Origin: a virus | Virus record (IMG/VR): IMGVR_UViG_3300046804_003780 | Length of the DNA: 64,000 bases | Direction: 5' to 3' (one strand) | Part shown: positions 13,508 through 51,246 of the stretch, piece after piece | Position numbering within the stretch: position 1 is the stretch's first letter | Layout: every line of letters begins with the position of its first letter | The notes under the pieces: model-generated | Databases searched by the model: none | What the model saw: only the letters and a program-made list of their open reading frames with translations | What the model was told of the DNA's origin: nothing | Made by a program: the position numbers and the translations under genes

Positions 13508-13630
13508 TGTTTTCTCCAACGCTCATTTACTAGCAGCAAAGTATTACTTAGCTTATTTCGTAGGGTATAGTCAAATAAGTTGGGTGATCCAAATCTAGTT
13601 TACACTAAATACTTAAATGAGGACTAATAA

Positions 13631-25000: not shown

Positions 25001-25022
25001 TAAAAGTGGCCCTAAGGCCACT
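25001..25022 (-). terminator. Terminator ending the tmRNA coding piece
   Basis: AGTGGCC-TTAG-GGCCACT followed by TTT on the minus strand. Confidence 0.75.
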
Positions 25023-25023
25023 A

Positions 25024-25342
25024 AACTATTTTTGGTTACAAGGCATAGTTGCCCCGAAGATCATGCTGCTAGAGCAAAAACCTCATCGTTAGCTGCGTTT
25101 GCAGTTATAGTTTTGCTTGATTGACAGTCATCGCCTACTGTGTTGTCCATATCCTTACTAATTGCCCTGTCGAAACCAAATTCAGGCCCATCATAAGAGG
25201 ATTATAGCAAATGCAATCACTATGGCTGCTAAACTATAAACAATTGTTTCGCCTACTTGATACATTCTAATCTCCTTATGGTGGACCTGCCCGGGGTCGA
25301 ACCGGGGTCCAGAACACCTTTCATTCAACTTCATACAACAAT
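25024..25342 (-). ncRNA. ssrA: Circularly permuted (two-piece) tmRNA: acceptor piece ~25342-25279, intervening segment 25278-25190, coding piece 25189-~25024; tag ANAANDEVFALAA at 25102-25061
   Basis: T-arm CCCGG-TTCGACC-CCGGG and CAGGTCC-A-CCA lie upstream of GGGCCTG (7-bp acceptor stem with G3:U70); GGTTTCGAC D-loop analogue; pk1; ATAACT-GCA resume context; tag ends in LAA-stop; downstream pseudoknot. Confidence 0.95.
25191..25265 (-). CDS. 24-aa hydrophobic peptide MYQVGETIVYSLAAIVIAFAIILL inside the tmRNA intervening segment
   Basis: TAAGGAGA RBS 5 nt before ATG; RBS plus ORF fill the segment from CCA to G1. Confidence 0.55.
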   Translation of the reverse strand: MYQVGETIVYSLAAIVIAFAIILL

Positions 25343-25470
25343 TCTTTAAGCTGTTGACAATATACTTGACATTGCCCACACCTATGATCCAGCTCAAAAA
25401 TACGCTGAATTAATTCCTCTTTTGTCTTAAAATCTGATTCTTTAATATTTCTACAAACACAAATAATCAT
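25321..25470 (-). CDS. 49-aa Bfd-like [2Fe-2S] ferredoxin (MIICVCRNIK...CGQC)
   Basis: Read by hand; N-terminal CxC and later CxxC as in bacterioferritin-associated ferredoxin; 3' end overlaps the tmRNA. Confidence 0.6.
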   Translation of the reverse strand: MIICVCRNIKESDFKTKEELIQRIFELDHRCGQCQVYCQQLKELLYEVE

Positions 25471-25471
25471 A

Positions 25472-25609
25472 TTAGTCAAAAAGATTTTCATTAGTATCTT
25501 TAGGCTTTATCCACTCATGATACACAAGTAGCATTGCTATTGAGATGCAACCCATAAGCATAACGCCCAAAAGAAACCCGATGATAAAATATAATTGCTC
25601 AGTTCCCAT
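25472..25609 (-). CDS. 45-aa single-TM protein (MGTEQLYFIIGFLLGV...)
   Basis: Read by hand; TAAATA at 25631-25636 upstream. Confidence 0.6.
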   Translation of the reverse strand: MGTEQLYFIIGFLLGVMLMGCISIAMLLVYHEWIKPKDTNENLFD

Positions 25610-25651
25610 TTTTTTATTATTCTAATCTAATATTTAGACTAAAACAATCAT

Positions 25652-32326: not shown

Positions 32327-32363
32327 TAAATTATTTAGAATATAGACAACTTAACCAAAAAAT

Positions 32364-35391: not shown

Positions 35392-38300
35392 TTAGTCACT
35401 TTTTAAGAAATTTGCTGGTATAGTGTTGCTAATTTGCAGTGGATCACCATTAGCAGAATAATCATCACTATTCCAAATTTTGTTATAATAAAACGGATCT
35501 AGAATATCTTTTGTTGAAAAACTCAAAACATATGAATATTTGTCCTGTGTTGGGAGAATCGCAGTTCCTTCTGCTCCCCTGACAAAATTAGTTATAGTGT
35601 TATCTTCAATATTAATATTTTTAAATCTAATTTTTTCGCCGTTTATTATTATTGTATTACCAAATCGCAATACAAATTCTAAAGCATCTCCGTCTGTTAC
35701 ACCTGAGGTGAAAATTACCTGAGTTGTAGAATTTACTGTATTAAGATAATATGAGGTTTTAGCTAACTCAAGTCCTGTTACTAAATTATTTACAGTTAAC
35801 AAAACTATATCTACTATGTTGTAGTTTAAGTAGGAGTAAATCTTTTGCGTTGTTATGTCATAAGATGCATAAGAAACCGTTGATGTTATATCGACCAATT
35901 TAGTTACATCATCAACGTAGATTTTAGTATCAGTAGGATAAATTGGTCTAACTAACCAAGTGCGATTTTCAATATTGCTGTTAGCAATCACCATTTCGTT
36001 ATTTTTGTTTACTGTTAAAGTATACCAAAGTTCATTTGGAGTAGGAGAGGGCATATAACTAGTAACAATAATTGTATTGCCAAGTGCAATAGGAGACATT
36101 ATACTTAATCTATTATTTGGCTGATTTATACGCAAATTATTAGGTGTAACTCTAGTACCATTTATATGTACAAACAATCTATTTGTATCTATAATATCAA
36201 GTGTAGGTTGATTAATTGAAATTGTGTTTGTATATTTCCAAATAAAGCCGCCAGAACCTACTCCGTTAGAATAGAATGTTCCGTAAGTGTTACCTATTAC
36301 AGGTACTGAAAGATTAAAATCACTATAAAGCTCATATCTATAATATGTAACTGCATTCTCAACATATGTTGGCAAAACTCTTACATAAAAAATATTATTA
36401 TTAATTTCAGTAATATTTTGAACTCCATCTATTAATACTTGATCTTGATTTACGAAAAAAGCATTTGTAGCTGTTGTAACTACAACAGGTGTAGCAGGAG
36501 TATTTATATAATAAATTGGAGTTACTCTTATAGATGTTGACGTTTGCGTTACGAAAAATTGATTTTGAGTATCGTTAAATGAAGTTACACTAACTATTGT
36601 ATTAGCAGCAATTGATGGTATAACAGTTAATGTAGTTCCAACAATTGTGTAGTCAATAGTATTTCTTGCACGTATTCCATCAATTTCAACTACCGCATTG
36701 TTAGGATTGTTTCCTCCCATATTGTTAGTTAATGTAAAAGTTTTTGGTCCACTTACGTACTGAAAAACTTGAGTTTCAGGCATACAATATTGATATATTG
36801 TGTTTGCAGGGCCGTAAATTGCAAAACTAACATACTGAGTAGCTAAATTAATAATAGATGTAAAAACAATGGTAATTGCATTTGATTTATTTGGTTCTAT
36901 TTTATAATCAACATTGTTTATTTTTTTAACCCCATTAATATACACTACTGGAAATAAATATACTCCATCTTTATATGGATAATTTGTGTCTATGTAACTT
37001 ACATTTTTCTTTGCATCAAACTTAACAGGAACATTATCAGATGTACCTTTAACTTCTTGATTTCCGCCTCCTAAACTATAGACTTCAAAATAAATTTTTT
37101 CTGTAGGACTTAATGGTGAAGTTAATGTTACAACCTTAAAAACCCAATCTATTGATTGTATTTTAACTAAACTTGTAGGGGTAGGCACTTGATTAACAGT
37201 GTAAATGCGTGTTGCTCTATTATTAGTATTCGAAATTATATAAACTGCAATTTGTGTTGCGTATGGTGATAAATTAGCAAAACTAAATGCAGTAGAGTTA
37301 CCTAAATCAAATATTCCGCTATTTACATAAAATCCAAAATTTTCGTATACAGTAGGATCCCAAAGTGATCCAGGTGTAGTCTTTACTGTAAGCTGAAGAT
37401 TATCTGTTATCAATGCTGGTACCATTTCTTCTGGTCCATATCCTGATAAGAATGTTTCTCCTTTTATGTTATATTCAGGTTCATTAGCAGTTAGGAAAGA
37501 AATATTTTCCCAATCTATTACATTGCTACTACGTAAAATTGTTGAGTTTTCACCTACTGCAATTAAATAATTGCCATCAAATTCAATTTCATTTAAATTA
37601 TTTGAACTTATTTGTGAGGTTTGACTCCATGTTTCTCCGTCTGAGCTATAAAGTATGTAACCATTATTACAAATTACTATATAGGTGTTTAGAGCATAAA
37701 TGCCGTGATTTATTTGTTGATTAAACGATGGTCCTAATATGGTAGCTACATTCCAGTTGCTTGCGTTGGTTGACCAGTAAATTTTACCAAAATCACCTGC
37801 AGCTATAATTTTTGTATTTGAACCAAATACTGTGTTAAAATTTACATCAAATGTTTGATTAGTATTGGTCCAAGTTATGCCATCGTAACTTATTACGACT
37901 CTAGCTTGGTCAGCAAATACTGGTGAAGGAGTGTCTGGACCTTCTATAATAGATGTTCCATTTCCAACTGCGATAAATCCTTCGAAACTGGTTGCGTCAG
38001 CTCCTGGTATATATGCAACTGATTTTAAAACGTTTGGTAATCTACTGCCAAAACTATACCCTGTTCCCCAGCTTGTTGCATTAATACTACTCAAAACATT
38101 ATTACCAACAGCTACGTAATTATTATTGTAGTACACAACATCGTATAGTTCATCATTAGGAGTTTCTACAGATAGGGTATCAAACCCTGCAACATCAAAC
38201 GGAGCATCATCATAAACTGTGTATGAACCTACACTTACCCAGTTAAATCCATCATAGCTTATGAGCAGAGGAGCACTAGCATTCAATGCACTAATTACGT

Positions 38301-41300
38301 AAAAAGAACCTGAGTAAATTATTCTAGTCACATTAATAGGTGTATCACTTATTTTTTTAAATGTCCAGTTTCTACCATCAATACTATATAAAACAGTTGC
38401 ATTCGTAGCTGCATTACCAATTGCTACATATTTGGCCCCGTCATATACTATACTTTTTATATCAATTTCTTTTGGATAAAACGGCTGTCCTTGTAAAATT
38501 ACATCTAATTCAAAATCATCATTAAATTTATTACCTAAATTAGTACCATTAGGATATTCTAATCCTGTCATTAATAATGGTAAATGTTTACCAGGCATAT
38601 TGATAGTTGGTTGGTAATAAGCAATAATTCTGTCTAACGCATTTATAAATGGGTAATCACTTTGTAATAACTCCCATTTAGTAAAATCAAAAGTTGCGTC
38701 ACTATTTGCCACAATGCACTTATACAATTTATTATTATAAGTGACCAATGATGCTGCAGGAATAGTGAATGGTTCAGGATAAAAACCAATATCTCCTGCG
38801 GTAAATATGAATGGAGTAGCCCCTGTATTTTTTACAGGATTAATTAACGTTGCATCGTAAAATAATCGGCATTTTGTTGCACTTATTGGTATCGTATAAT
38901 ATTCATCAAATGCATTGGAACATATACCACTTAAACTATAAAAAACTATGGCTCCGGATAAAGCAAAAGTAACAGTAATTATTAAATCATTTGCCGGTGA
39001 AGAGCCTCCCAAAAGTGCTCCTGATATTGTTATAACGTCTCCGGTAGTGTAAATATTTCCAAAATCTTTTATGTCAATATCATACTCATTTGACACAGTT
39101 GTGCCATAGATTCTTGGGCTAGTAACCCAAATAATGGCACCACCAGAACCTGAATTATCATAGATATATGGAGTTGTAAGTCTGGCTACTTTATAGAAAT
39201 AAAGTTTGGTCTTATTAAGATATCCAGCTGCTAGACTAGTATTTGTGTAATTAAATGTTACAATGACATTATTTGTACCAGATTCTGTTGTTACTGCTGA
39301 TATTGGAACAGTGGCCCCTTGTAGGCTTGACAAGAATACAGGTTTAGCAACACCTTCAACAATAAATTGTGTTATTGATCCGGCTAAGGTTACGCTTACA
39401 ACAGTTATTGTACAACTATTTGTAGGAGCAGTTCCTCCCAATAAATTACCTGGTATCGTAATTACATTTCCTGCTTGATAATTTAATCCTCCACTATTTA
39501 AAATTGCTGTGTACACACCAACGTTATTGGCAGTTGAATAAAAATCAGGTGGCTCGTCTTGGTTACCATAAATCCAAGCATATACATCAAATAAAGCTCC
39601 TGATCCTCCCGCAGGACTTACGTTTCCTGAAACAGATGGGAAAGGTATTGCAGTAGCAAGCTTACTTGCATAGCTTGCATCATTTCCTATGCTATTATAA
39701 GTTGAGATGTAAAATTGATTTGGCTCCCAAACAGTAACCTCAGGTCTATAACTAGTTCTGTCAAATTTTAATACAGGAGTAATTTGTCTTGTAGGAGCAT
39801 TACTTGATATTGGAGCCAATCTAGCACCTAATGTTAACACATGATTATTACTTGGAGTTCTTCCTTGGACTAAAATTAATCTATGTGTATCAGTTAAAGC
39901 ATTAATTTTTGAAATGTAAAATGCAATAGCAGTAGGTCTATTTTGATTTGCAATAGTAACTGCAGGTTTTTTAGTTCCATATTCAATTAATCTTATATAA
40001 TAATATTGATTATCTATTAATCCCAAAATAGTTGATAAATTGCTACCTTTACTGTATTTTAATAAATCTCCTGTTTCAAACAATTTAAATGGAACGTTTA
40101 TAGTATAATTTGTATAGTTTATATCAGAGGTATTAAATTTATGTTCAATTGACGGTTCAATAATTAACTCAGGTAATACCTTATATCCTTCACCTGAATT
40201 TAAAACAGTAACAGCAACAACTTCTCCTGCTGACATTTGGGCCTTAAGGGACGCTTGTACTTTAGGAGCAGGAAAAACTTCTGTATTTACGTAACTTACA
40301 ATATTTGGTGGTTCTGTGTATCCTCTACCACCATATATAACACTTACGGCAGGCAAATCTATAAAGATTTTTGTTCCTGGAAAATGATCTACAACTTCAG
40401 TATCTAATGCACCTCTTGTTAATCCAGATAATATTCCCAAATCTCTGTCAACTGTGTTATAACCTATATATTCATTATCAATTTTAATCACGCCTACTGT
40501 TGGATATCCAAATGCATTATCAACAACAATTATTTTTGTTGCGACTGGGACATATTCACGCAGTAAACCAATAAAATAATTTTCTTTTCCTTGCAGTTTT
40601 ACTCCGTAGTTATTAAACCATTGATTATACTGTGGTTCTTGCCATATTTTATCAGAAGAATTATATTGAGATTCTAGCAACGTGTCACTAAAAACTAGTT
40701 CAGGAGTAATAAAAGAATCAAGTGTTGCATTCCATTGAGCAGGTAAATCAAAATCAGAAATATCTCCGTCATATAGATTTGTCTTTGTATATTTTAAACT
40801 AAATTCTTTAAGTTTTACTCTATATGGTTTAACCTCATTGATATATCCATAAAGAAAATCTTCATTGTCACGTTGGAAATTTTTAGTTTGCTCTAATTCT
40901 CTTAAAGTGTGTTCTACATCTAAAAATGAGGTTTTGTTTAACCAAGGTAAATAGTTACCAAATTCTTCTGTTTCGGTTATAATATATTGAAATAGTAAAA
41001 TTAGTCCTTGATTTCTATAAATTAATAGGTCATCAGTGAAAACTTCTTCATTTAATCCACGTATGATATTGTAGGTTTCTACTGACGGGAAACTGTCATA
41101 AGGTGTGCTATCGTAAAAACTGTCCCCAAATCCTATTCCGTTAATGCTATAATCATAGAGAGATTTTTTGATTGCAATTGTCCCTAGCTCTAGTCCGATT
41201 CGGTTCCAATTATTATTTTGATATAAATAAACTTCACGCTTACCGTTACTGTTAGCATTTACTCCAACTATCATATTCTCAAAAGCATTTAACTTTTCTA

Positions 41301-44300
41301 AATCGTAATATTTTGGAACGTCAATATCAGTTCTTGTTGAATCTGAATAACCTTCTGCCCACCAGTTTACATATTCCCAATAATTGTTTGTGTCAAAATC
41401 ATCTCCGGAAAGTGTGAAAAACGCAGGAGCATTTAACCCTGTTGTAGCCACTCCTCCCAATGTAAGGAAGCTAGGATTTTTCAACTCAGTTATAGGAAAC
41501 TTAATCATTACATTATTTGCAAACTGCACATAATTTTCCAAAGCCCGTAATCTGTTATAGAAAAAACTTTGGCTTGGTCGCAAATTAGTGCCAGTTTGTA
41601 ATAATCTAGGTAAAAATGGGTTAGGAACAGATTGTCCTAACAAATCAACTCCTGAAAAACTATCTAATAATTTTTGATATAAACCATTAGGAGTGACTAG
41701 GTTATTATACAATGTGGGGAGTCCAGGTAGAAAATCTTCTGCATACCCATCACGTATCAATTTAAATTCTGTGTGAGCAACATCATTCCCACTATCTGTT
41801 TTATATCCTAAATGCAAACTTGTAAAAGTAGCACTAATATATTCAAACACATTATACAAAGCATACACATTTTGTTTTAATGGTGCTAAAAAAGCTATAC
41901 CAGAAGTAATAGGATTAGAAATGTAGGATGAAACTATATTATCCGCAAGTGTTTTTGCATTTGATAAAACGGTCCCAATATTTTTAACCCAATAATAATA
42001 TCTTGTTACTATAGTACCACTTTCAACAATTTCGTTTAATGTTGTGTAGGCATCAATATCGTAAACAGTACCAACACCAGTATAATCTATAGGTAAAACG
42101 TCACTTTCTATCCACGTGTAGACTGATACTGTGCTGCCTGGAAACACTGTTCCCCAGTATCTACTATTATATAAAATGTTATTTTGATGATAATCAATAA
42201 ATTTGGTTTCAGATGTGTCGAACCATAATTTTCCAACGTATTCTTGTCCCCAAACAGATTTCCTTACATTGTTATTATTATATCCTGCAGGGTCTACGCT
42301 TGATATGTAATCTAAGTTTTGTGCGACAACACCTAATAATTTTCCTTGTAAAGGATCAATATAATCTAAACTTACAATGTTTAAATTATTTAAATTGTTA
42401 TATATTGAAACTCCATGTAGTTTGTTTATGTCTACAGTATTGGTGGGGTTTCTATAAATATACCAATTAGGTTTTCCAGAAGTATTTCTAAAAATATTAA
42501 CTCTACCATTTTGACTACCACTTAGATATGTGGGAGATCCAATTATAATGTTGTAATTATTAAACGAAATATTAGTTCCATAATACGGGGCACTGCCTAA
42601 AGTTGTGGTTGTATCGTTGACTAATTGACCAAGAACAAATTTTCCAATATTGTCTATACTTTCGTTGTACGCACCTAAATAGTCATATACATATGCTGAT
42701 CCTGCATCTGCAACAACATCAGTAAACACTGTAAAGTTATTATCAAAAATAGTGTCATTGCTATAATCTTCGTCATCAGTAAAATCAAATGTCGTTTGAG
42801 TATATCTATTACTTGTAGGAGCAGACACAACAAAGGAATTTAATTCATTAAATTTTATTGATGTTCCGTATTGAGTATTATTTTGTATGTTAGGATCGTG
42901 TAAAGTTTGTGTTTTTTTATAGAAAGTTATACCTAAACTTGCAAAATTTGCTTCTGCGAATACTGTTAAATTAAGTTTATCTTCCAAAACATTTAAACTT
43001 TGATTGATTAATTGTATTACAAGTTTATTATCATTTGTTTTTGATGCTATTACATTTGGAATATTTGCCTCGTTTATTGCAATAACCGCATTATTAATTC
43101 CAGTTGCAGGTAAAGTCACCGCAAATCCATTAATTAAAATGTTAATTTGACTTGATAAATTGTAAACACTAGAACCAGTGATTATGCCAAACTTTTTACC
43201 TGCATTAGTATATCTATAGACTGTACCTTCTGTTCCTGTTGCATCTACGATATCAAATGGAGAACCTACTAATAATTCATTACCTAAGTTATTATTACTT
43301 AATCCCTTACCATAAAGTATACCTACTCTTGGATTGGTAACTTCGCTGTGTCCTATGAGTGTTTGACTTAAAATAAAATCATTACCTTCAACCAATATTA
43401 AATCACCTGCTTTCAACACAATTTGTTCTTTAATTGTTAAAATATTTGTTGATAGTGTATAATTAGAACTTGATAAAATATTACCATTTAAAAATACACT
43501 TATAGAATTTGTAGGTGTCCATGCTAAGGCAAAACTAGTAGCAATTGTTTGAATGGGGGTAAATCTTGACTCAAATATTTGTTTAACTCTATTGTAAATG
43601 TATACAACTCCTGTATCCGTAACAGCATTAAAGTCTTGATTAGGCGCACTTATGAAAAGTTGTGTTCCATTGTAATTTGTAGAAATGTTTGATCCAAAAT
43701 TTGTTGCTGACCCTGCGCCGGTAATTGTTGCAACATTTGTATAGTCATAATAGGCTCTGTAAACTGTAGTGCCTATATTAGCTCCTGCAAAGAAATAACC
43801 TTCTATGGTAAAGGTTGTTAAATTACTACCTGCGTCAAATTCTCCTGTGATGATTTTGTAGGTTGTTGATCCATTTACATTAGAGAAACTAACCATTTGT
43901 CCTTCTAATAATAATGATCTTCTATCTCCTGAAACTCTAAATTGATTACCGTTAACAGATATAGCAGAGGTTAATGGATATCCAATACTTGTAAAAGTTA
44001 AATTTGAATTTTTTCTATACACAAATACTTGTCTTGTAGAACCTCTACCTACAAAAAAGTAATTACAATCGTCACTCATCACTACTTTATCTGCAGCGCC
44101 ACTTCCGCTTATATTAAATGAATTTTGTAGGGCAACAGCTTCAATTTTTTCAGTCGAAACTAGTTCATAAATGTAAACTATGCTGGTTGTTGCAGATTTT
44201 AATATGGCTAAAAAGTTTTGTTTTTTATCCATACTTGAACCAAACCCAGTTGGGCTTGATGGTATTGTAATTGTTTCGTCTAAATTCCAAAAGTTAATGT

Positions 44301-47300
44301 TTGATTCATATTTGTATCTATAAACATTTCCAGTGCCTGAATCTCCTAAGAAATAACCTAATTTAGCATCAAAAGCAACACTACTTCCAAAAGATGAAGT
44401 TGGCACTGGCTTGTTAAAACTTGATGATAATTGATAGTTGATACCTTTTCTATAAACTGCCCATGTGCCATTAATGTTTTCATCCACCCATACTGTGCTT
44501 AGGACAAATTCAGTATCAATGAGATTTAAATTACTAATATCTTTTGGTGATGAAACTCTTTGATTTTGTAGTTTTGCAACTATTCCAGTTGACTCAATGT
44601 TTGATATAGATAATGGCAAACTTAAATCTATAACAACTGAGTTTGCATCACTAATTCTTACTATAATATAGAAACCATCTACAAAGCTTGAATAATTCAA
44701 AATCATTATCACAGTATTGACTGCTAAATTATGCGGTTTATCAAAAAATACTGTGCAAGTATCATTTAAATTATTAACTACATTTATTATAGCAACTGGA
44801 ATGTTTGCGTTAAGAGATGTTGTGGCGTAAATTCTCCAATCACCTTTGAAATCTGCTATCCAAATATATTCGTTTTTATAAATGTCGTAAATTGAAACTT
44901 CATTTTGATTTAAATTTGCAACTTTAAATGAATATGTTTTAATATCTTCAAAATTCACATATCCAGCCGATGGTAATTGATTAAATGTACCAGAAGGTAA
45001 AAGTGGAAGTATATTGATATTATTTGGAACACGTCCGTAATTACTTAAAGCATAAATTGGTATTTCTTGCATTGAACCTGGTTCATTAACATCTTTTATG
45101 ATACTAACAATAGCAGGATTTCCATTTAATTTTTGTTGATCCAGTTTAAATTCAATAAAATTTTGATCTAATACACCACCATAATTTCCTATATTGATTG
45201 CCCAATTTTCATAAGTTGTATAATTTATACCACCAGTTTGTAACGTAATGTTTTGAATTGCAGAAGTAGCTTGTTTACTTCCTTTTTCGACAATCATTGT
45301 CTTATAAAGATTTACTTGTGATATGTCATCCAAATTTGCAGCAGCTAAATAATCTCTTGGTCTATATCCAATTAAAGAAAAAGATAATAAATCAGCGTCA
45401 TTTTCTAAGTTTGCTTGGTACGAATTATAATATAAAGTACTCTCATATGCCCTGCTACTTGCATTAGGTAATAATCCTTTTTGTATTAAATCATAGTCTA
45501 CTTTTGTCCAAAGATTTTGTTGAAAGGAGGCTGCTGGCTGAATAATTTCATTTGAAGCATAATAATTATTTTTATATTTTACTATTACGCCTTTTGTATA
45601 TTTGGTATTTGCCTGCCAATCTATAACATTATCCTGATTTAAAATAAATCCTTTTGTATCTACCGTGCCGTCCCAAGTTGCAGTTTTTGCTCCTTTTAAC
45701 AACATACGATATTGTCTTAAGCCAGTATTTGGATCATAAATTAAATCATTAAACAATGTTACATTGTCAAAAACAATTGCGTGTTCGATATTACTTAAAT
45801 TAGCATTAAAGTATGCAATAGTATCATCAACCTTTATAGGAATCGCAGAAAATTCAACTCCATTTCTAATAATTGACATATCCTTAATTTGTATTGGAAT
45901 TAAATTTTGATTTAATACATAATTTTGAGCTTGTAGTGTTAGAGGTTGAACAATAGCATTTTCTTTATTAATTACAATTTTTTTAGCCAAAGGATTTATA
46001 TTTAATATTGAACCTGTTTCCCAACCTGCTTGAATCCAAGCTAAAACCTCTTGAATCATTTGATTCCAATTAAGAATGAGGTTATTTTCAACCTGATTAA
46101 ATTCGAGGCCTTGTGAACTTAAGTAATTACCATAAGAATTAATAAATTCAGCAAGTGCCTGAGGTGTAGAAAACTCGGTGCTATATGGAACTATAACAAC
46201 TTTACCGCTTGAATTTTTTGAAATTCTAACTGACAATGAGCCAGATGTTATGGTTTCATACTTTCCATTTACCAATGGAGCAAATGTTTTAAAATAAATT
46301 TTATTTTGACTATTACCATATACTTGATAACCAGTATCAGTTTTTTGAATTATAATTGAACTATAAACAATCGTGTCAAAAGGTTGATTTTCATGTAGTA
46401 GGACTTGATAACTTTCGTCTGGAATTAATAAACTATTATTTCTGCTCGTTGGGGAACCTTTATCAACATAAAATTTTAACAACTCTTTGTCGCTAAATCC
46501 TGCCAATCGATAAACCAATCTTACATCTAAATTGTTAAGATATTCTGTTAAAATATCATATCCTGAATTTCCTGTACTCTGAACATAGTCCACTATCCAA
46601 TTAATGTAACTATGCTGTGCTGTTCCGCTCCCGTATAATACAGATCCTGTAGTTTGAAATCTAAACTTGTTATTGACTAGATACTGATCAAATTCATCAT
46701 TAAATTTATAGGTGTCTAAATTTTCTCCCAACGCATAAAATTTTGCAGGTTTACATAACGCTAAAATTTTTACCAAGTCGTAAGGCCAAGAACTGCTCTT
46801 TAAATAACTAAATTCAGCAGGACCCCAATCACCAACTTTCCATTGTGTTTGGAACGTCAAGTTGTCATAGTTACCTATAACAGAATTTAATGGATCAACT
46901 AAATTCCCCAAATCGTCCACTGGTAAAACTTTTAAGAGTCCTGGTCTTTTTCTTGATTCAATTATAATTGGATTTCCGTCATTATAATCATAACCATTTT
47001 CCATATCAGTCCATAATACTAAGTTATTTTTAGTATACGGCGGTAATCCATAATAACTATCCCACCATTTAGGCTTATTGGTGTACCCAATCATTTCCCA
47101 AGGAGTTAAGTTTGGAGTTACTGTGTCAAAAAACCAGTTATATAATCCTTTCCAATTGCCCCTTTTTACTAAAGTATTATCTAATCTATTTGTTGCTTGG
47201 TAATAGTTATATGTGTATGCATCTGTTGCACTGTAATATTGTGATTTATAATCAATTCTATTTTGACCTACCCAATTTAAAAAGGACATTGAGTACAATT

Positions 47301-50300
47301 GTAAAATTTCATCATAGTTATAGTCAGTATTTCTAAATTGTCCAGGTAGAACCTCATCACTTGAAATTGGAATTTTAGAACTTACTTTTAAATTGTTATA
47401 AATTCGGCACTCAAATTCAAATATTACTTGGTCACGATAATCTGTTAGATATCCATTTTTATATTCACCGTATAATGTTGTTAACGAACCATCGTGACCT
47501 TTTATAAACCAAGTAGGATTTACATAAGAAGTATCATAAACAACTTCAGGTATTGTTGCTGGATAAAATCCTAATTTTGTAGGAGTATTTGGTACATAAC
47601 TACCATATGTTTGATTGTATTCATTAACAACAATTACGTCTCCAATTACCAAATCAGTATACACGTTGACTAAGGGTTGATCCGAACTAACTATATAATC
47701 TACGTCCCTAATTAATTGTCGCTGAACTAACACTCCATTTACATTTCTTAAAAGATAAAGTAATACAGAGTTATAATTTGCTGAAGTAAAATCATATATT
47801 TTGCTTAAAGAAAATTGCGATTGATTTACATCGGCATTGAAAGAATACCTATTGGTTATATATGCTCCTTTACTAGGTAACATATCTGACCAAAAGAATG
47901 AATTGCTTTGTGTTTTGTATGAAGTTATTTCATTGATAGCGTTATCTAATATAGTTGACGCTATTTGATAGCTTTCATATGGTGTTTTAGATACCACATC
48001 TATGAGTAGACTTTTATATTTAATATATTCAACTGAATTAAAGTTAAGAGAATCAATTAAATTAAAGTTTGCATTTTTTAAGAATGCCCCAGTTAATGAT
48101 AAAGGAGCACTATTTTGAATTATTTTTGTTCCATATCTTACTAGGTTTGGTAAATCTCTGTAATTATTTGCACCAAATATTTGACCAACAATACGTTTAC
48201 TGTTTGTACAAATACTCAAATAATGATTTTTTATGTCTCCTAAATTAGGACTCACTATTTGCGCATTAAAGATATTGTTTTCTAAGTTTGTTGGTATCGT
48301 AAAATACCCCGTAGTGCTTACCTTATCACTATAAATTAATATTTGTATAGGCGTTTCTAATATTGGAGTAGAATTTAAAGTTATTGTCGTTGTATTTCCT
48401 TGCACTGCAAAAGTAAATTCAGTATCAAATAAAATATTATCTCTAACATAAACTTGCACTACCGGCCATGCAGTAGAATCTGTGGATTTAGCTGGTACAT
48501 CGCAAATAAAAATTGGACTGCCCTTTGCTGGGTCATAATTAAAATTAAATGCTTGATATTGAATACTATTTGAAATTGCAGTTTGCCAGCCTAGTTCTCT
48601 CACATAATCGGTTTTAGACTGATAATTATATATGTATCCTGTATTAACATCCTGTGTTGTTTGAATTCCATTTAACACATAATTAAATTTATCTGTGTTA
48701 TATGAAACATTAAATTGAATATCACCTATGTTGTTTACTGAACTATATTTTAAAGGAAATCCTAATATAGGATCATTGTTCCCAGTACCTGTCGCATATT
48801 GAAATAGTGAAGTTCCAATAAAACTACTACTGTTGTAATAATCTGTGTCCCCAAAGCTTAATCCATTTGAATCAAAAATATCAAACAGCGGTGGTTGATT
48901 TACTGTTGTTTTTAACTGCCCTTGTATCCAAGTTGATCCATTAAACCAATATGTATATCCTTTTCTATCTTCACCTAACAATACTACGGTTTGATCAAAA
49001 CTTTCAACATCTCCGTTAGCTATTTTTGTAAGTGTTATTACAGGTGGTGATTGAGTTATTACTACATTGCCGGTTGCATTATCTAATTGAATAAAATTAG
49101 ACAAATTTGGATCTGTGCTTAAGCGCAGTGATGTAGAATTTGGTATATCATATACATAGTATTTTGTAAATGCTGTCAAATTGCCTATGTTTTGATTTAA
49201 AGAAACTAAACTTCCTACAACAAAACTTGTAGAATCTGTTACAGTAAGTCTGTCTGTAGAGGCGCTAGTAGAACTTATTACTGTCGATGTCTGTGTAGCA
49301 ACCGACGTGGAAATATAATTTACTCTATAAATTTTGTTTCTAACATTTACATCTGTGTCTGCACTGAATATAACCTTACAACCATCAAACAATCCAAAAC
49401 TTAAGCCGTCTGGATAATACTGTAATTGACTGGCTACTTGTGTAAATGCGTCGGTCGCAGTTATATCAAAATAATCAACCGGAGGTTTTGCTTGAATGCC
49501 TAAATTGAATAATTTTAAGTTAGGGTAAAATTCAATAATTGGTCTTTTAGCTCTAGCCTCATTACTATTAATAACATTAAGTAAATTTTTACTGTTAGTA
49601 TGTTTAATAGTTTCTTGTATGACCTGTGAGTGGAACCATCTATTACCTCTAGTCCACGCATTTAAATTTTGGGCTGCTCTGTTAATAGTGATATAATCTT
49701 GTGTTATAGGTGATTCAACTATATCAGAATATGGTGCAATATCATATGGTGCAGCATCATATGGATTGTAAACACTTTGTGAATACGATTCTGGTGTTAC
49801 TAACGTAGAGGCTGAAATTAATTTAATACCTGTTCCAACTCCTTCTACATAATATTGATCCGTTTTATATTTCTCAGGTACAACGTCACCAGAAAAACTT
49901 ATTTTTAATCCATTAGTAAATTTAACGTTGTTTGGTGAGATGTAAGTTAGTTTGTTTAAAATATCAGTTTCAACATTTATATAATTGGCTTCATTACTAT
50001 CTACTATTTTAATAACGCCAATCTTTTTAAGATTTTCACTGTCCTGATAATACAATGTATCTAAGGGTGCAGTGACTTCAGGTATTATTTGTATTTCTCC
50101 TGTTTGTAATCTTACAAATTTTTTAAAAATATATTGATTTCCAATTAATACCGTAATATTTGTATTTGTTGGTATTACATTTAATGGGGTTAAATTAATT
50201 ATTGGATCACCTGGCTCATCTGTTTCTTCATAGGTTATTTTGAAGAAATACTGACTTACATTTACAAAAGAAGCTGAATCGAACCCTACAGGGTTAGTGC

Positions 50301-51246
50301 TAACTGCGTCAAAACCTCCGTTGTCATAAAAGGTATCAACTGCTGTAATTTGTAATGGCGGAGCACCATAAAACATTAATGTCTTGTCTAATAAATTTGT
50401 AGCACCATCAATATTTCCAATTTGGCTAAGTCTTTGTCCGTGTATATTATAAAAAAATTGAGTTGTAACTAAATCGACATTAACATTTCCTGTATAGTTT
50501 TGAGATTGCTGGGCGTCTGCATATGGTACATTAAAAATCATCACCCCTTCTGAGGTGCCATTATTTTCTAATCCAAAAATGTCTCTTGTACTTACATTAG
50601 GCCTATTTGGAAGCACGCCAGAAAGACCTGGAGCGGTCTGTATCCAAAATTTAGAATTTTGATCTACATTAAAATAATATGTTCCACCACGTAATAATGT
50701 TATTGTTGGGTTAAATTCTTCAATAGAAAAATTGTCTTGTATAAACAAAAACTCGTTAGTTTGACTTTTAACATCAAAAAAGGAAGTTAGATTGATAGGC
50801 AATGGTTCAATATTAATTACATCTGGTCCAAAAGGTAACCAATAATATTGACTATAGTTAGACAATTTATCCAAATCTGCAAAACTATCCCAACTGTAAA
50901 ATTGATTATTAAATAACAAAGAATTATTTGTGACTGGCGCCCCTTGTAGTTTAAGGGCATCAATCATTTCAGGATAGGTAATAAAATCTAATGCTCTGTT
51001 TGTTTCATTTTTTTTAAAAATAACTGCAGGTTCTAATTGATAATCAGTTCTTGTTTTATTAATTTCAGGTATGTAATAAGAGTTTGGAGTCAACCCGTAT
51101 TCAAATCTTCTGCCAATATAACCTTGAAGCTTTTCTAAATCTTGTTGTTGAACAAGTTGATCCAATGTGGCGGATAAAAAGTTTTCATTAGGAGTCGTTT
51201 TAAAAATTTCTGGAAGAAAATCAATTGTTCTAACTTGCGCTACCAT
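35392..51246 (-). CDS. Giant 5284-aa baseplate wedge / virion structural protein (gp7-like position)
   Basis: Uninterrupted ORF directly after gp6; N-terminal FLPEIF; FG-GAP-like and SxDGxxW propeller repeats; YINEVKPY. Confidence 0.8.
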   Translation of the reverse strand: MVAQVRTIDFLPEIFKTTPNENFLSATLDQLVQQQDLEKLQGYIGRRFEYGLTPNSYYIPEINKTRTDYQLEPAVIFKKNETNRALDFITYPEMIDALKLQGAPVTNNSLLFNNQFYSWDSFADLDKLSNYSQYYWLPFGPDVINIEPLPINLTSFFDVKSQTNEFLFIQDNFSIEEFNPTITLLRGGTYYFNVDQNSKFWIQTAPGLSGVLPNRPNVSTRDIFGLENNGTSEGVMIFNVPYADAQQSQNYTGNVNVDLVTTQFFYNIHGQRLSQIGNIDGATNLLDKTLMFYGAPPLQITAVDTFYDNGGFDAVSTNPVGFDSASFVNVSQYFFKITYEETDEPGDPIINLTPLNVIPTNTNITVLIGNQYIFKKFVRLQTGEIQIIPEVTAPLDTLYYQDSENLKKIGVIKIVDSNEANYINVETDILNKLTYISPNNVKFTNGLKISFSGDVVPEKYKTDQYYVEGVGTGIKLISASTLVTPESYSQSVYNPYDAAPYDIAPYSDIVESPITQDYITINRAAQNLNAWTRGNRWFHSQVIQETIKHTNSKNLLNVINSNEARAKRPIIEFYPNLKLFNLGIQAKPPVDYFDITATDAFTQVASQLQYYPDGLSFGLFDGCKVIFSADTDVNVRNKIYRVNYISTSVATQTSTVISSTSASTDRLTVTDSTSFVVGSLVSLNQNIGNLTAFTKYYVYDIPNSTSLRLSTDPNLSNFIQLDNATGNVVITQSPPVITLTKIANGDVESFDQTVVLLGEDRKGYTYWFNGSTWIQGQLKTTVNQPPLFDIFDSNGLSFGDTDYYNSSSFIGTSLFQYATGTGNNDPILGFPLKYSSVNNIGDIQFNVSYNTDKFNYVLNGIQTTQDVNTGYIYNYQSKTDYVRELGWQTAISNSIQYQAFNFNYDPAKGSPIFICDVPAKSTDSTAWPVVQVYVRDNILFDTEFTFAVQGNTTTITLNSTPILETPIQILIYSDKVSTTGYFTIPTNLENNIFNAQIVSPNLGDIKNHYLSICTNSKRIVGQIFGANNYRDLPNLVRYGTKIIQNSAPLSLTGAFLKNANFNLIDSLNFNSVEYIKYKSLLIDVVSKTPYESYQIASTILDNAINEITSYKTQSNSFFWSDMLPSKGAYITNRYSFNADVNQSQFSLSKIYDFTSANYNSVLLYLLRNVNGVLVQRQLIRDVDYIVSSDQPLVNVYTDLVIGDVIVVNEYNQTYGSYVPNTPTKLGFYPATIPEVVYDTSYVNPTWFIKGHDGSLTTLYGEYKNGYLTDYRDQVIFEFECRIYNNLKVSSKIPISSDEVLPGQFRNTDYNYDEILQLYSMSFLNWVGQNRIDYKSQYYSATDAYTYNYYQATNRLDNTLVKRGNWKGLYNWFFDTVTPNLTPWEMIGYTNKPKWWDSYYGLPPYTKNNLVLWTDMENGYDYNDGNPIIIESRKRPGLLKVLPVDDLGNLVDPLNSVIGNYDNLTFQTQWKVGDWGPAEFSYLKSSSWPYDLVKILALCKPAKFYALGENLDTYKFNDEFDQYLVNNKFRFQTTGSVLYGSGTAQHSYINWIVDYVQSTGNSGYDILTEYLNNLDVRLVYRLAGFSDKELLKFYVDKGSPTSRNNSLLIPDESYQVLLHENQPFDTIVYSSIIIQKTDTGYQVYGNSQNKIYFKTFAPLVNGKYETITSGSLSVRISKNSSGKVVIVPYSTEFSTPQALAEFINSYGNYLSSQGLEFNQVENNLILNWNQMIQEVLAWIQAGWETGSILNINPLAKKIVINKENAIVQPLTLQAQNYVLNQNLIPIQIKDMSIIRNGVEFSAIPIKVDDTIAYFNANLSNIEHAIVFDNVTLFNDLIYDPNTGLRQYRMLLKGAKTATWDGTVDTKGFILNQDNVIDWQANTKYTKGVIVKYKNNYYASNEIIQPAASFQQNLWTKVDYDLIQKGLLPNASSRAYESTLYYNSYQANLENDADLLSFSLIGYRPRDYLAAANLDDISQVNLYKTMIVEKGSKQATSAIQNITLQTGGINYTTYENWAINIGNYGGVLDQNFIEFKLDQQKLNGNPAIVSIIKDVNEPGSMQEIPIYALSNYGRVPNNINILPLLPSGTFNQLPSAGYVNFEDIKTYSFKVANLNQNEVSIYDIYKNEYIWIADFKGDWRIYATTSLNANIPVAIINVVNNLNDTCTVFFDKPHNLAVNTVIMILNYSSFVDGFYIIVRISDANSVVIDLSLPLSISNIESTGIVAKLQNQRVSSPKDISNLNLIDTEFVLSTVWVDENINGTWAVYRKGINYQLSSSFNKPVPTSSFGSSVAFDAKLGYFLGDSGTGNVYRYKYESNINFWNLDETITIPSSPTGFGSSMDKKQNFLAILKSATTSIVYIYELVSTEKIEAVALQNSFNISGSGAADKVVMSDDCNYFFVGRGSTRQVFVYRKNSNLTFTSIGYPLTSAISVNGNQFRVSGDRRSLLLEGQMVSFSNVNGSTTYKIITGEFDAGSNLTTFTIEGYFFAGANIGTTVYRAYYDYTNVATITGAGSATNFGSNISTNYNGTQLFISAPNQDFNAVTDTGVVYIYNRVKQIFESRFTPIQTIATSFALAWTPTNSISVFLNGNILSSSNYTLSTNILTIKEQIVLKAGDLILVEGNDFILSQTLIGHSEVTNPRVGILYGKGLSNNNLGNELLVGSPFDIVDATGTEGTVYRYTNAGKKFGIITGSSVYNLSSQINILINGFAVTLPATGINNAVIAINEANIPNVIASKTNDNKLVIQLINQSLNVLEDKLNLTVFAEANFASLGITFYKKTQTLHDPNIQNNTQYGTSIKFNELNSFVVSAPTSNRYTQTTFDFTDDEDYSNDTIFDNNFTVFTDVVADAGSAYVYDYLGAYNESIDNIGKFVLGQLVNDTTTTLGSAPYYGTNISFNNYNIIIGSPTYLSGSQNGRVNIFRNTSGKPNWYIYRNPTNTVDINKLHGVSIYNNLNNLNIVSLDYIDPLQGKLLGVVAQNLDYISSVDPAGYNNNNVRKSVWGQEYVGKLWFDTSETKFIDYHQNNILYNSRYWGTVFPGSTVSVYTWIESDVLPIDYTGVGTVYDIDAYTTLNEIVESGTIVTRYYYWVKNIGTVLSNAKTLADNIVSSYISNPITSGIAFLAPLKQNVYALYNVFEYISATFTSLHLGYKTDSGNDVAHTEFKLIRDGYAEDFLPGLPTLYNNLVTPNGLYQKLLDSFSGVDLLGQSVPNPFLPRLLQTGTNLRPSQSFFYNRLRALENYVQFANNVMIKFPITELKNPSFLTLGGVATTGLNAPAFFTLSGDDFDTNNYWEYVNWWAEGYSDSTRTDIDVPKYYDLEKLNAFENMIVGVNANSNGKREVYLYQNNNWNRIGLELGTIAIKKSLYDYSINGIGFGDSFYDSTPYDSFPSVETYNIIRGLNEEVFTDDLLIYRNQGLILLFQYIITETEEFGNYLPWLNKTSFLDVEHTLRELEQTKNFQRDNEDFLYGYINEVKPYRVKLKEFSLKYTKTNLYDGDISDFDLPAQWNATLDSFITPELVFSDTLLESQYNSSDKIWQEPQYNQWFNNYGVKLQGKENYFIGLLREYVPVATKIIVVDNAFGYPTVGVIKIDNEYIGYNTVDRDLGILSGLTRGALDTEVVDHFPGTKIFIDLPAVSVIYGGRGYTEPPNIVSYVNTEVFPAPKVQASLKAQMSAGEVVAVTVLNSGEGYKVLPELIIEPSIEHKFNTSDINYTNYTINVPFKLFETGDLLKYSKGSNLSTILGLIDNQYYYIRLIEYGTKKPAVTIANQNRPTAIAFYISKINALTDTHRLILVQGRTPSNNHVLTLGARLAPISSNAPTRQITPVLKFDRTSYRPEVTVWEPNQFYISTYNSIGNDASYASKLATAIPFPSVSGNVSPAGGSGALFDVYAWIYGNQDEPPDFYSTANNVGVYTAILNSGGLNYQAGNVITIPGNLLGGTAPTNSCTITVVSVTLAGSITQFIVEGVAKPVFLSSLQGATVPISAVTTESGTNNVIVTFNYTNTSLAAGYLNKTKLYFYKVARLTTPYIYDNSGSGGAIIWVTSPRIYGTTVSNEYDIDIKDFGNIYTTGDVITISGALLGGSSPANDLIITVTFALSGAIVFYSLSGICSNAFDEYYTIPISATKCRLFYDATLINPVKNTGATPFIFTAGDIGFYPEPFTIPAASLVTYNNKLYKCIVANSDATFDFTKWELLQSDYPFINALDRIIAYYQPTINMPGKHLPLLMTGLEYPNGTNLGNKFNDDFELDVILQGQPFYPKEIDIKSIVYDGAKYVAIGNAATNATVLYSIDGRNWTFKKISDTPINVTRIIYSGSFYVISALNASAPLLISYDGFNWVSVGSYTVYDDAPFDVAGFDTLSVETPNDELYDVVYYNNNYVAVGNNVLSSINATSWGTGYSFGSRLPNVLKSVAYIPGADATSFEGFIAVGNGTSIIEGPDTPSPVFADQARVVISYDGITWTNTNQTFDVNFNTVFGSNTKIIAAGDFGKIYWSTNASNWNVATILGPSFNQQINHGIYALNTYIVICNNGYILYSSDGETWSQTSQISSNNLNEIEFDGNYLIAVGENSTILRSSNVIDWENISFLTANEPEYNIKGETFLSGYGPEEMVPALITDNLQLTVKTTPGSLWDPTVYENFGFYVNSGIFDLGNSTAFSFANLSPYATQIAVYIISNTNNRATRIYTVNQVPTPTSLVKIQSIDWVFKVVTLTSPLSPTEKIYFEVYSLGGGNQEVKGTSDNVPVKFDAKKNVSYIDTNYPYKDGVYLFPVVYINGVKKINNVDYKIEPNKSNAITIVFTSIINLATQYVSFAIYGPANTIYQYCMPETQVFQYVSGPKTFTLTNNMGGNNPNNAVVEIDGIRARNTIDYTIVGTTLTVIPSIAANTIVSVTSFNDTQNQFFVTQTSTSIRVTPIYYINTPATPVVVTTATNAFFVNQDQVLIDGVQNITEINNNIFYVRVLPTYVENAVTYYRYELYSDFNLSVPVIGNTYGTFYSNGVGSGGFIWKYTNTISINQPTLDIIDTNRLFVHINGTRVTPNNLRINQPNNRLSIMSPIALGNTIIVTSYMPSPTPNELWYTLTVNKNNEMVIANSNIENRTWLVRPIYPTDTKIYVDDVTKLVDITSTVSYASYDITTQKIYSYLNYNIVDIVLLTVNNLVTGLELAKTSYYLNTVNSTTQVIFTSGVTDGDALEFVLRFGNTIIINGEKIRFKNINIEDNTITNFVRGAEGTAILPTQDKYSYVLSFSTKDILDPFYYNKIWNSDDYSANGDPLQISNTIPANFLKSD

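Follow-up and report, generated by a model that had tools for sequence, protein, structure and literature searches.

A beta-type circularly permuted tmRNA gene in a very large T4/Rak2-like phage

We analyzed a circularly permuted, two-piece transfer-messenger RNA (tmRNA; ssrA) gene located on the minus strand of a 64,000-nt stretch of the IMG/VR record IMGVR_UViG_3300046804_003780 (hereafter the window; all window coordinates are positions within that stretch). The gene has the beta-type architecture, its structure is conserved among viral homologues and it lies among phage genes. Taken as a whole, it is very likely that this is an intact tmRNA gene under selection, carried by a very large T4/Rak2-like myovirus, whose RNA would rescue stalled ribosomes by the mechanism proposed below. 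Viral and bacterial loci used for comparison are referred to by L numbers and bacterial genomes by G numbers.

Identity and architecture of the permuted tmRNA gene

A first-pass annotation of the window had proposed a phage-encoded two-piece tmRNA and had suggested that it be checked with ARAGORN and with permuted covariance models, and both searches were positive. ARAGORN called a permuted tmRNA with the tag ANAANDEVFALAA, and two Rfam models matched over their full length: tmRNA_permuted (RF04321; 129 bits against a cut-off of 47, E = 6.5e-25, positions 25340-25061) and beta_tmRNA (RF01850; 122.7 bits against a cut-off of 84, E = 7.2e-37, positions 25391-25001). The RF01850 alignment runs end to end through all 331 model positions and survives clan competition. 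The gene order is permuted, with the encoded CCA lying upstream of G1 on the minus strand and an intervening segment between them (Table 1). On rereading this strand, all of the elements described earlier were found at the coordinates given for them, and only the extent of the gene needed adjustment: the RF01850 alignment takes in an unpaired 5' leader out to 25391, and the paired region begins at 25340, within the earlier range of 25001-25342.

The tag frame opens with an alanine codon and closes with a hydrophobic degron end and a stop, as expected of a tmRNA. Stem 1 of pseudoknot 1 (PK1) is present in the Rfam alignment, the computed fold of the precursor hairpin has an energy of -36.2 kcal/mol (z = -4.0), and a consensus scan for terminators found three terminator-like sites against 0.3 expected, including the one that closes the tmRNA gene. 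No riboswitch was found in the window by Rfam. The gene had also been described as a compact two-pseudoknot phage version of the RNA, a description that we do not retain: taking the Rfam model and bacterial genes fetched for comparison as the reference for beta-type architecture, PK1, the tag, one 3' pseudoknot and a terminator constitute the ordinary bacterial layout, because the full RF01850 model aligns end to end and the bacterial genes share the same motifs.

Table 1. Positions of the permuted tmRNA gene, its parts and its upstream neighbors in the window, and of the homologous genes in two cultured phages (P2, helix 2; ORF, open reading frame; aa, amino acids; SD, Shine-Dalgarno sequence).
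Feature	Position	Strand	Remarks
Permuted tmRNA gene (precursor)	25001..25340	-	Acceptor piece, intervening segment, coding piece, terminator; ARAGORN and Rfam
Acceptor piece	25279..25340	-	P2 5' strands, T-arm, acceptor 3' strand, discriminator, CCA; position of 5' end putative
P2 5' strands	TGTTGT 25340-25335; TGTTCTG 25316-25310	-	Sequence reading
T-arm CCCGG-TTCGACC-CCGGG	25306-25290	-	Sequence reading; tRNA-like T-loop
Acceptor 3' strand CAGGTCC	25289-25283	-	Sequence reading
Discriminator A (A73)	25282	-	Sequence reading
Encoded CCA	25281-25279	-	Sequence reading
Intervening segment (spacer), 89 nt	25190..25278	-	Ends pair as trailer:leader helix extending the acceptor stem; predicted to be removed on maturation
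Coding piece	25001..25189	-	Acceptor 5' strand, TGGTTTCGAC motif, P2 3' strands, PK1, tag, 3' pseudoknot, terminator
Acceptor 5' strand GGGCCTG	25189-25183	-	7-bp stem with CAGGTCC, includes G3:U70; first nucleotide is G1
P2 3' strands	CAGGGCA 25169-25163; ACAACA 25146-25141	-	Pair with TGTTCTG and TGTTGT, respectively
PK1	25115..25140	-	Stem 1 CAGT/ACTG; stem 2, loop GC..TGA with downstream TCA..GC
Tag reading frame	25102..25061	-	Resume codon GCA at 25102, then ANAANDEVFALAA, then TGA
3' pseudoknot	25055-25024	-	Conserved loop GTAACCAAAA
3' pseudoknot, stem 1	GGGGC 25055-25051 with GCCTT 25044-25040	-	
3' pseudoknot, stem 2	AACTAT 25050-25045 with ATAGTT 25029-25024	-	
Intrinsic terminator	25001..25022	-	7-bp GC-rich hairpin (25022-25005) and T-run
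Spacer ORF, 24 codons, MYQVGETIVYSLAAIVIAFAIILL	25191..25265	-	Hydrophobic, one predicted membrane helix; translation predicted
Spacer-ORF SD AAGGAG	25277-25272	-	Sequence reading
Upstream small operon	25321..25637	-	Candidate promoter core and two small ORFs; probable source of transcription
Candidate promoter core CTAAATA	25637-25631	-	22 nt upstream of orf45
45-aa membrane ORF (orf45)	25609-25472	-	Conserved upstream in L121, L122, L124 and L134
Cys-rich 56-aa ORF (CxC...CxxC...C)	25491-25321	-	Last codons overlap a P2 strand of the tmRNA
tmRNA of phage X1 (L370)	OQ427096.1, ~120980-121430		RF04321 77 bits; ARAGORN tmRNA*
tmRNA of phage BUDD (L371)	ON758385.1	reverse	RF04321 77 bits; ARAGORN tmRNA*

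Structure and tag are conserved among viral homologues

A motif scan of IMG/VR identified at least 120 viral loci, and a search with the neighboring gene, which encodes a 732-aa protein, identified 18 syntenic loci. To quantify covariation, 58 non-identical viral homologues were aligned and base pairs were counted for the helices read from the window. Overall, 86.6% of the cells were paired (73.9% in shuffled alignments), with a covariation score of 0.262 compared with 0.096 in the shuffles; none of 500 shuffles reached this score, which fell to 0.04-0.07 when the pairing partners were slid. Compensatory change in the stems, whose absence had been put forward beforehand as grounds for doubting the gene, is found in the helices listed below. 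All cells of the acceptor stem are paired (100%), with three of its seven pairs changed on both sides, and the G3:U70 pair of this 7-bp stem, already recognized in the first-pass annotation, is a G:U in 58 of 58 homologues. The T-stem is likewise paired in 100% of cells, with four of five pairs changed on both sides and none broken. Outer P2 (P2a) is paired in 96.8% of cells (five of six pairs changed on both sides) and inner P2 (P2d) in 98.8% (one of seven, with four pairs invariant), and the trailer:leader helix that flanks the spacer is paired in 88%, six of its eight pairs having changed on both sides. Hairpins equivalent to the terminator, with compensatory changes, occur in the relatives as well (helix 11 of the covariation set).

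Since MAFFT misaligned the pseudoknots, these were analyzed from sequence anchors. The 3' pseudoknot showed 33 distinct stem-2 sequences, and in 35 of the 50 genes parsed stem 2 forms 6-12 perfect base pairs across the conserved loop; the fifth pair of its stem 1 changes from C:G in the window to G:C in L134 and to U:A in L036. Compensations in stem 2 of PK1, identified by eye, include UGA/UCA in the window, AGA/UCU in L338, UCG/UGA in L336 and CUG/CAG in L024.

The tag is of the LAA type, as proposed earlier and confirmed both by the sequence and by ARAGORN. Among 113 viral permuted tmRNAs called by this program, 93 tags end in LAA and 106 in AA, and 45 of the 50 distinct viral tags start with AN or AAN. 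An unusual ANA extension of the window tag is common to a 5-member subclade, in which the relatives L134, L022 and L036 differ from the window in the tag only by synonymous changes, F/Y exchange and the stop codon. Judged by these comparisons, the tag is under selection.

Genomic context and carrier

The gene is flanked on both sides by T4/Rak2-like jumbo-phage genes, including those for a T4-type baseplate wedge protein (818 bits), gp25, a baseplate hub protein, a late sigma factor and CobS/CobT-like proteins. When 15 syntenic viral loci were scanned with Rfam, 10 of them had a permuted tmRNA downstream of the homologue of the 732-aa gene. The phage location given in the first-pass annotation is thus borne out by both the flanking genes and the synteny. 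Only four of these ten tmRNAs were found by ARAGORN; the other six (L121, L122, L123, L125, L128, and L132), which include genes with long spacers and genes with an alpha-type tRNA-like domain, were recovered with RF04321 or RF01850. For annotation, this means that ARAGORN alone can miss permuted tmRNAs that the permuted model of Rfam finds.

The nearest cultured phages are the 350-470 kb jumbo phages Phosso, Serratia BF, and GAP32, at ~32% identity. The contig of the carrier itself measures at least 141.7 kb, and CheckV rates two syntenic fragments of ~55 kb as 10-16% complete, so that the genomes of this group would be several hundred kb long, roughly 350-550 kb. BLAST searches of INPHARED with the 3-kb region and with the tmRNA alone gave no real match, only a weak lead from the acceptor piece to the phages X1 and BUDD (see below), and an exact 61-nt probe for the contig of the window had no hit in IMG/VR. 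An attempt to infer the host through the phage pstS gene found its top PstS matches (80-91% identical) on related phage contigs and not in bacteria.

Two further observations concern the surroundings of these genes. In the window, a single ORF of 5,284 aa (35392-51246, minus strand) adjoins the baseplate module. On five other viral contigs, an amber-suppressor tRNA (anticodon CTA; labeled tRNA-Pyl by ARAGORN) is located 1-5 kb from the permuted tmRNA (L006:5061-5137, L014:6981-7055, L037:6031-6106, L039:1932-2007, and L051:1274-1348), and it is possible that TAG is recoded in those five phages.

Bacterial relatives and phylogeny

Bacterial beta-type genes were reached with a relaxed motif, which led to a Burkholderiales-like order; of the 151 genomes sampled from it, only 3 have a permuted tmRNA of the beta type. 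The canonical lineage corresponds to one family (22 of 61 genomes, 214-331 bits, ~60% GC at the two loci measured). In a second bacterial family, a beta-type permuted ssrA is present in 4 of 61 small genomes of 1.7-3.0 Mb (L338, L347, L348, and L349, in G722, G825, G844, and G826, respectively; 160-169 bits). Of these, L338 (169 bits) has ~40% GC at that one measured locus, a full CCA and a TTTTGAT leader, and by these features seems to resemble the phage genes more than it does the canonical family. In three of three bacterial genomes tested the beta-type permuted tmRNA is the only ssrA. Signature motifs and trailer:leader design are common to these bacterial genes and the phage gene, and the bacterial spacers measure 5-49 nt.

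Other leads were discarded or negative. Three exact 15-mer matches in 401 Pseudomonadota genomes were rejected as chance (the order of one of them has an alpha-type tmRNA), a contig scan with a generic pattern was rejected as it matched tRNA-like ends in Acidobacteriota and other phyla, and the class around a 'Gammaproteobacteria' metagenome-assembled genome, a small-genome lineage, had no beta-type tmRNA.

A quick tree was inferred by maximum likelihood from 104 sequences (spacers removed, 237 columns, unrooted), with branch support given as SH-like approximate likelihood ratio test values (SH-aLRT). In this tree, a single clade gathers 75 of the 80 viral sequences (SH-aLRT 96), the canonical bacteria form a separate one (SH-aLRT 96), and the window tmRNA falls in a 5-member subclade (SH-aLRT 98) with L134, L022, L036, and L062. 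The window gene therefore lies outside the bacterial (betaproteobacterial) lineage, though it is of the beta type in architecture. Since the tree is short and unrooted, it shows the separation of the two groups and not its direction. We consider these comparative results worth more than the single gene: the phage genes form a diverse lineage of their own, with at least 120 viral loci as against only 3 carriers of this gene form among the 151 sampled Burkholderiales.

A small upstream operon as candidate source of transcription

Directly upstream of the tmRNA gene there is a small operon with two short ORFs behind a candidate promoter core (Table 1), which probably supplies tmRNA transcription. 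The core motif, CTAAATA, is rarer in the window than expected (13 copies against ~25), and several of its copies precede an ORF start by 6-25 nt on the coding strand (e.g., 13605-13611, 25631-25637, and 32332-32338). The T4 late promoter TATAAATA is not enriched in the window and is absent near the tmRNA gene. The Cys-rich ORF of this operon also occurs just upstream of the tmRNAs of otherwise unrelated contigs (L054:3413-3559 and L092:4716-4862) and upstream of the alpha-type tmRNA of L135 (7978-8079). From these positions, it seems that the ORF travels with the tmRNA.

Variable spacers and an exchangeable tRNA-like domain

The 89-nt spacer contains a short ORF for a predicted hydrophobic peptide, whose TGA stop ends 1 nt before the mature G1, within a conserved T(G/A)AT leader that is also present in genes without the ORF; the SD and the AUG of this ORF are base-paired within the precursor helix. 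Homologous cassettes with the same length and ends are found in another subclade of tmRNAs, in L029, L041, L045, and L070, and similar peptides are encoded in L049 and L071, while the nearest relatives of the window gene (L134, L022, and L036) lack the cassette. Longer spacers of 150-480 nt hold larger ORFs that start right after the CCA. Those of the syntenic loci, at 250-480 nt (L125:7484-8040, L128:3609-4064, L131:7179-7542, and L132:8098-8680), begin with CCA-TAAGGAAG and a start codon and end with TGA just before G1. Read across these loci, the spacer is behaving as a gene slot.

A mosaic tmRNA in L121 (6334-6733; also in L122) shows that the tRNA-like domain is exchanged. Its neighboring gene is 75% identical to that of the window, its tag ANAANDEVFALAA is unchanged and its mRNA-like part is 87% identical, whereas its tRNA-like domain is of the alpha type and only 61% identical. 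This domain has the T-loop GGCGGTA and ATAGTATCGA instead of TGGTTTCGA, with a T-arm identical to that of the alpha-type L135; the same T-loop type was seen in 18 of 30 bacterial alpha-type loci. The L121 mosaic thus points to a gene built from exchangeable modules, in which the tRNA-like domain can be swapped from one phage to a near-identical one and may be a determinant of host compatibility.

Proposed mechanism and alternative explanations

The most likely function of the gene would be ribosome rescue and tagging during infection, through a mechanism that matches, by analogy, that of known two-piece tmRNAs. Transcription of the gene, which would probably form the 3' end of the small phage operon, would yield one precursor and halt at the gene's own terminator. 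In this precursor the acceptor stem would continue into the trailer:leader helix to form a long hairpin, and host tRNA-processing enzymes (RNase P at G1, and 3' trimming to the encoded CCA) would remove the 89-nt spacer, leaving an acceptor piece of ~60 nt and a coding piece of ~185 nt that stay joined through the acceptor stem and P2. Host alanyl-tRNA synthetase (AlaRS) would charge the RNA via G3:U70 and host SmpB would deliver it to stalled ribosomes, where translation would resume at GCA and append a degradation tag of the LAA type, (A)ANAANDEVFALAA. The phage would probably gain extra capacity for ribosome rescue during host mRNA degradation and heavy phage translation. An earlier suggestion, that the phage RNA stands in for host tmRNA cut by defense nucleases, is left without support, as nothing in our analysis bears on it.

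The reliance on host SmpB follows from our searches for this protein. In agreement with the first-pass annotation, tblastn with two bacterial SmpB proteins found no smpB in the window (best E = 1.1; the positive control was detected at 57% identity), and the Pfam SmpB model found none in five viral records with the same tmRNA type, including genomes of 364 kb (rated 100% complete) and 338 kb (rated 97% complete). The window and these five records thus gave no self-sufficient tmRNA-SmpB pair, and the phage RNA would have to use host SmpB; phage tmRNA genes of this kind would depend on it.

Several points weigh against this interpretation. Expression, processing, charging and tagging are predicted from the sequence of an uncultured phage. 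Compatibility with host SmpB is an assumption, and an smpB gene may be located elsewhere in this phage genome, beyond the window. With the beta type present in only 3 of 151 Burkholderiales, the host may have a standard one-piece tmRNA. As for expression, a promoter scan found no sigma-70-like promoter directly upstream of the tmRNA, and the CTAAATA motif, as a candidate phage promoter core, is only suggestive of transcription. Finally, base pairing in the middle of P2 is poor when judged by the Rfam beta model (NC marks).

Three other explanations were considered. One is that this is a working tmRNA put to another use, such as tagging host or early phage proteins for amino-acid recycling or for the timing of infection, with its tRNA-like domain swapped to suit each host. 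Such alternatives were raised for the phage Melnitz (Buchholz et al., 2022; PMC9004378), and the ANA extension shared within the subclade, the close relatives that have the same tag with either an alpha-type or a beta-type tRNA-like domain, and the location of the gene behind a candidate late-type promoter could be read in this way. A tmRNA, however, cannot select substrates beyond stalled ribosomes, the sequence bears no sign of selective targeting and the promoter assignment is weak, and we regard this other use as improbable. We give about the same small credence to a decoy or inhibitor that sequesters the SmpB, AlaRS or RNase R of the host, or that blocks host trans-translation. A phage in which no SmpB was found would compete for that of its host, and there is a precedent in the tag-less, tRNA-like tmRNA of mycobacteriophage DS6A (as cited in PMC11915505); tmRNA-SmpB is also described as regulating RNase R in a paper on AcrIIIA1 that is only tangential here (PMC11662646). 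Yet a decoy would need the tRNA-like domain only, whereas the mRNA-like part of these genes, with its resume codon, tag, LAA end, PK1 and 3' pseudoknot, is kept under purifying selection; a tag-less decoy, in particular, is rejected on the complete and conserved mRNA-like part. Least credible, and largely refuted, is the host bacterium's own ssrA beside an integrated or co-assembled prophage: tmRNA genes are classic integration sites, at which prophages and islands often end (PMC11915505), and pstS and porin genes of host-like character are located 4-7 kb from this one, but phage genes flank it on both sides over tens of kb, the pstS-porin pair recurs in the same order on metagenome contigs read as related phages, the tmRNA occupies the same spot in 10 syntenic viral loci and falls in the viral clade and not with bacterial genes, and it lacks the sigma-70 promoter of the bacterial model and encodes the full CCA, unlike canonical bacterial genes.

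Alongside the preferred interpretation of a phage gene for ribosome rescue, a broader scenario may be entertained, although we think it rather unlikely. Beta-type two-piece tmRNAs could be mainly a phage family made of three exchangeable modules (the tRNA-like domain, a spacer cassette and the mRNA-like part), with the tRNA-like domain, of beta or alpha type, swapped to fit SmpB and the translation machinery in a new class of host. Bacteria with this form, at least those with small genomes and low GC (4 of 61 in their family), could then have obtained their only ssrA from the phage pool, and not the phages theirs from bacteria.

Comparison with known systems

Phage two-piece tmRNAs have been described before (Buchholz et al., 2022; PMC9004378), with 53 two-piece genes among 133 unique phage tmRNAs, mostly aquatic, and a 2025 tmRNA database, the source of RF04321, lists 79 phage tmRNAs and contains 11,946 permuted sequences. 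The gene therefore adds a further example and not a new type: one more large phage brings its own ribosome-rescue RNA, and the general picture is unchanged. The mechanism proposed above agrees with what has been described for two-piece tmRNAs (Keiler, 2000, as cited in Buchholz et al., 2022).

Like the window gene, those of Melnitz, a Methylophilales phage, and of the pelagimyophages (PMC9004378) are permuted ssrA genes encoded by aquatic T4-like myophages and have a complete tag, and in these phages too the phage gene may be of another lineage than the host's own tmRNA. The Melnitz gene is of the alpha type and was reported with a glutamine riboswitch, whereas the window gene is of the beta type (RF01850) and its Rak2/GAP32-like carrier is a much larger phage. 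As for the huge phages (Al-Shayeb et al., 2020; PMC7162821), these are likewise large phages with translation-related genes that include tmRNAs. According to the passages of that work considered here, which state neither the form (permuted or not) nor the subtype of the tmRNAs, some of them also encode SmpB, unlike the window and the five related records searched.

The same architecture is found in the bacterial beta-type genes (RF01850; a Rhodocyclales-type lineage according to Sharkady and Williams, 2004, as cited in PMC9004378). Common to both are the PK1 loop AGGCGA..AAGC, the 3' pseudoknot loop CCTTGT.ACC.AAA, the trailer:leader helix and, just ahead of G1, a ..GAT leader. The window gene differs in scoring 123 bits with RF01850, compared with 214-331 bits in the canonical family; in encoding the full CCA where that family has ACC followed by T; in its 89-nt spacer with an ORF, compared with 5-49 nt in bacteria; in lacking the promoter that the bacterial model includes; in the ANA extension of its tag; and in belonging to a separate viral clade.

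Among cultured phages, the Xanthomonas jumbo phages X1 (OQ427096.1) and BUDD (ON758385.1), of ~200 kb, carry a permuted tmRNA homologue with the same GGGCCTG/CAGGTCC acceptor and T-arm type as the window gene. Their genes differ in the tag VAANDADYSVARYA, which has no LAA end, and in a longer spacer of ~120 nt, and they are only ~74% identical to the window over 70 nt. The tmRNA is unannotated in X1, and in BUDD a coding sequence for a 'hypothetical protein' (USV41083.1) lies over it. X1 and BUDD thus offer a cultured bench system with an unannotated homologue of the permuted tmRNA described here.

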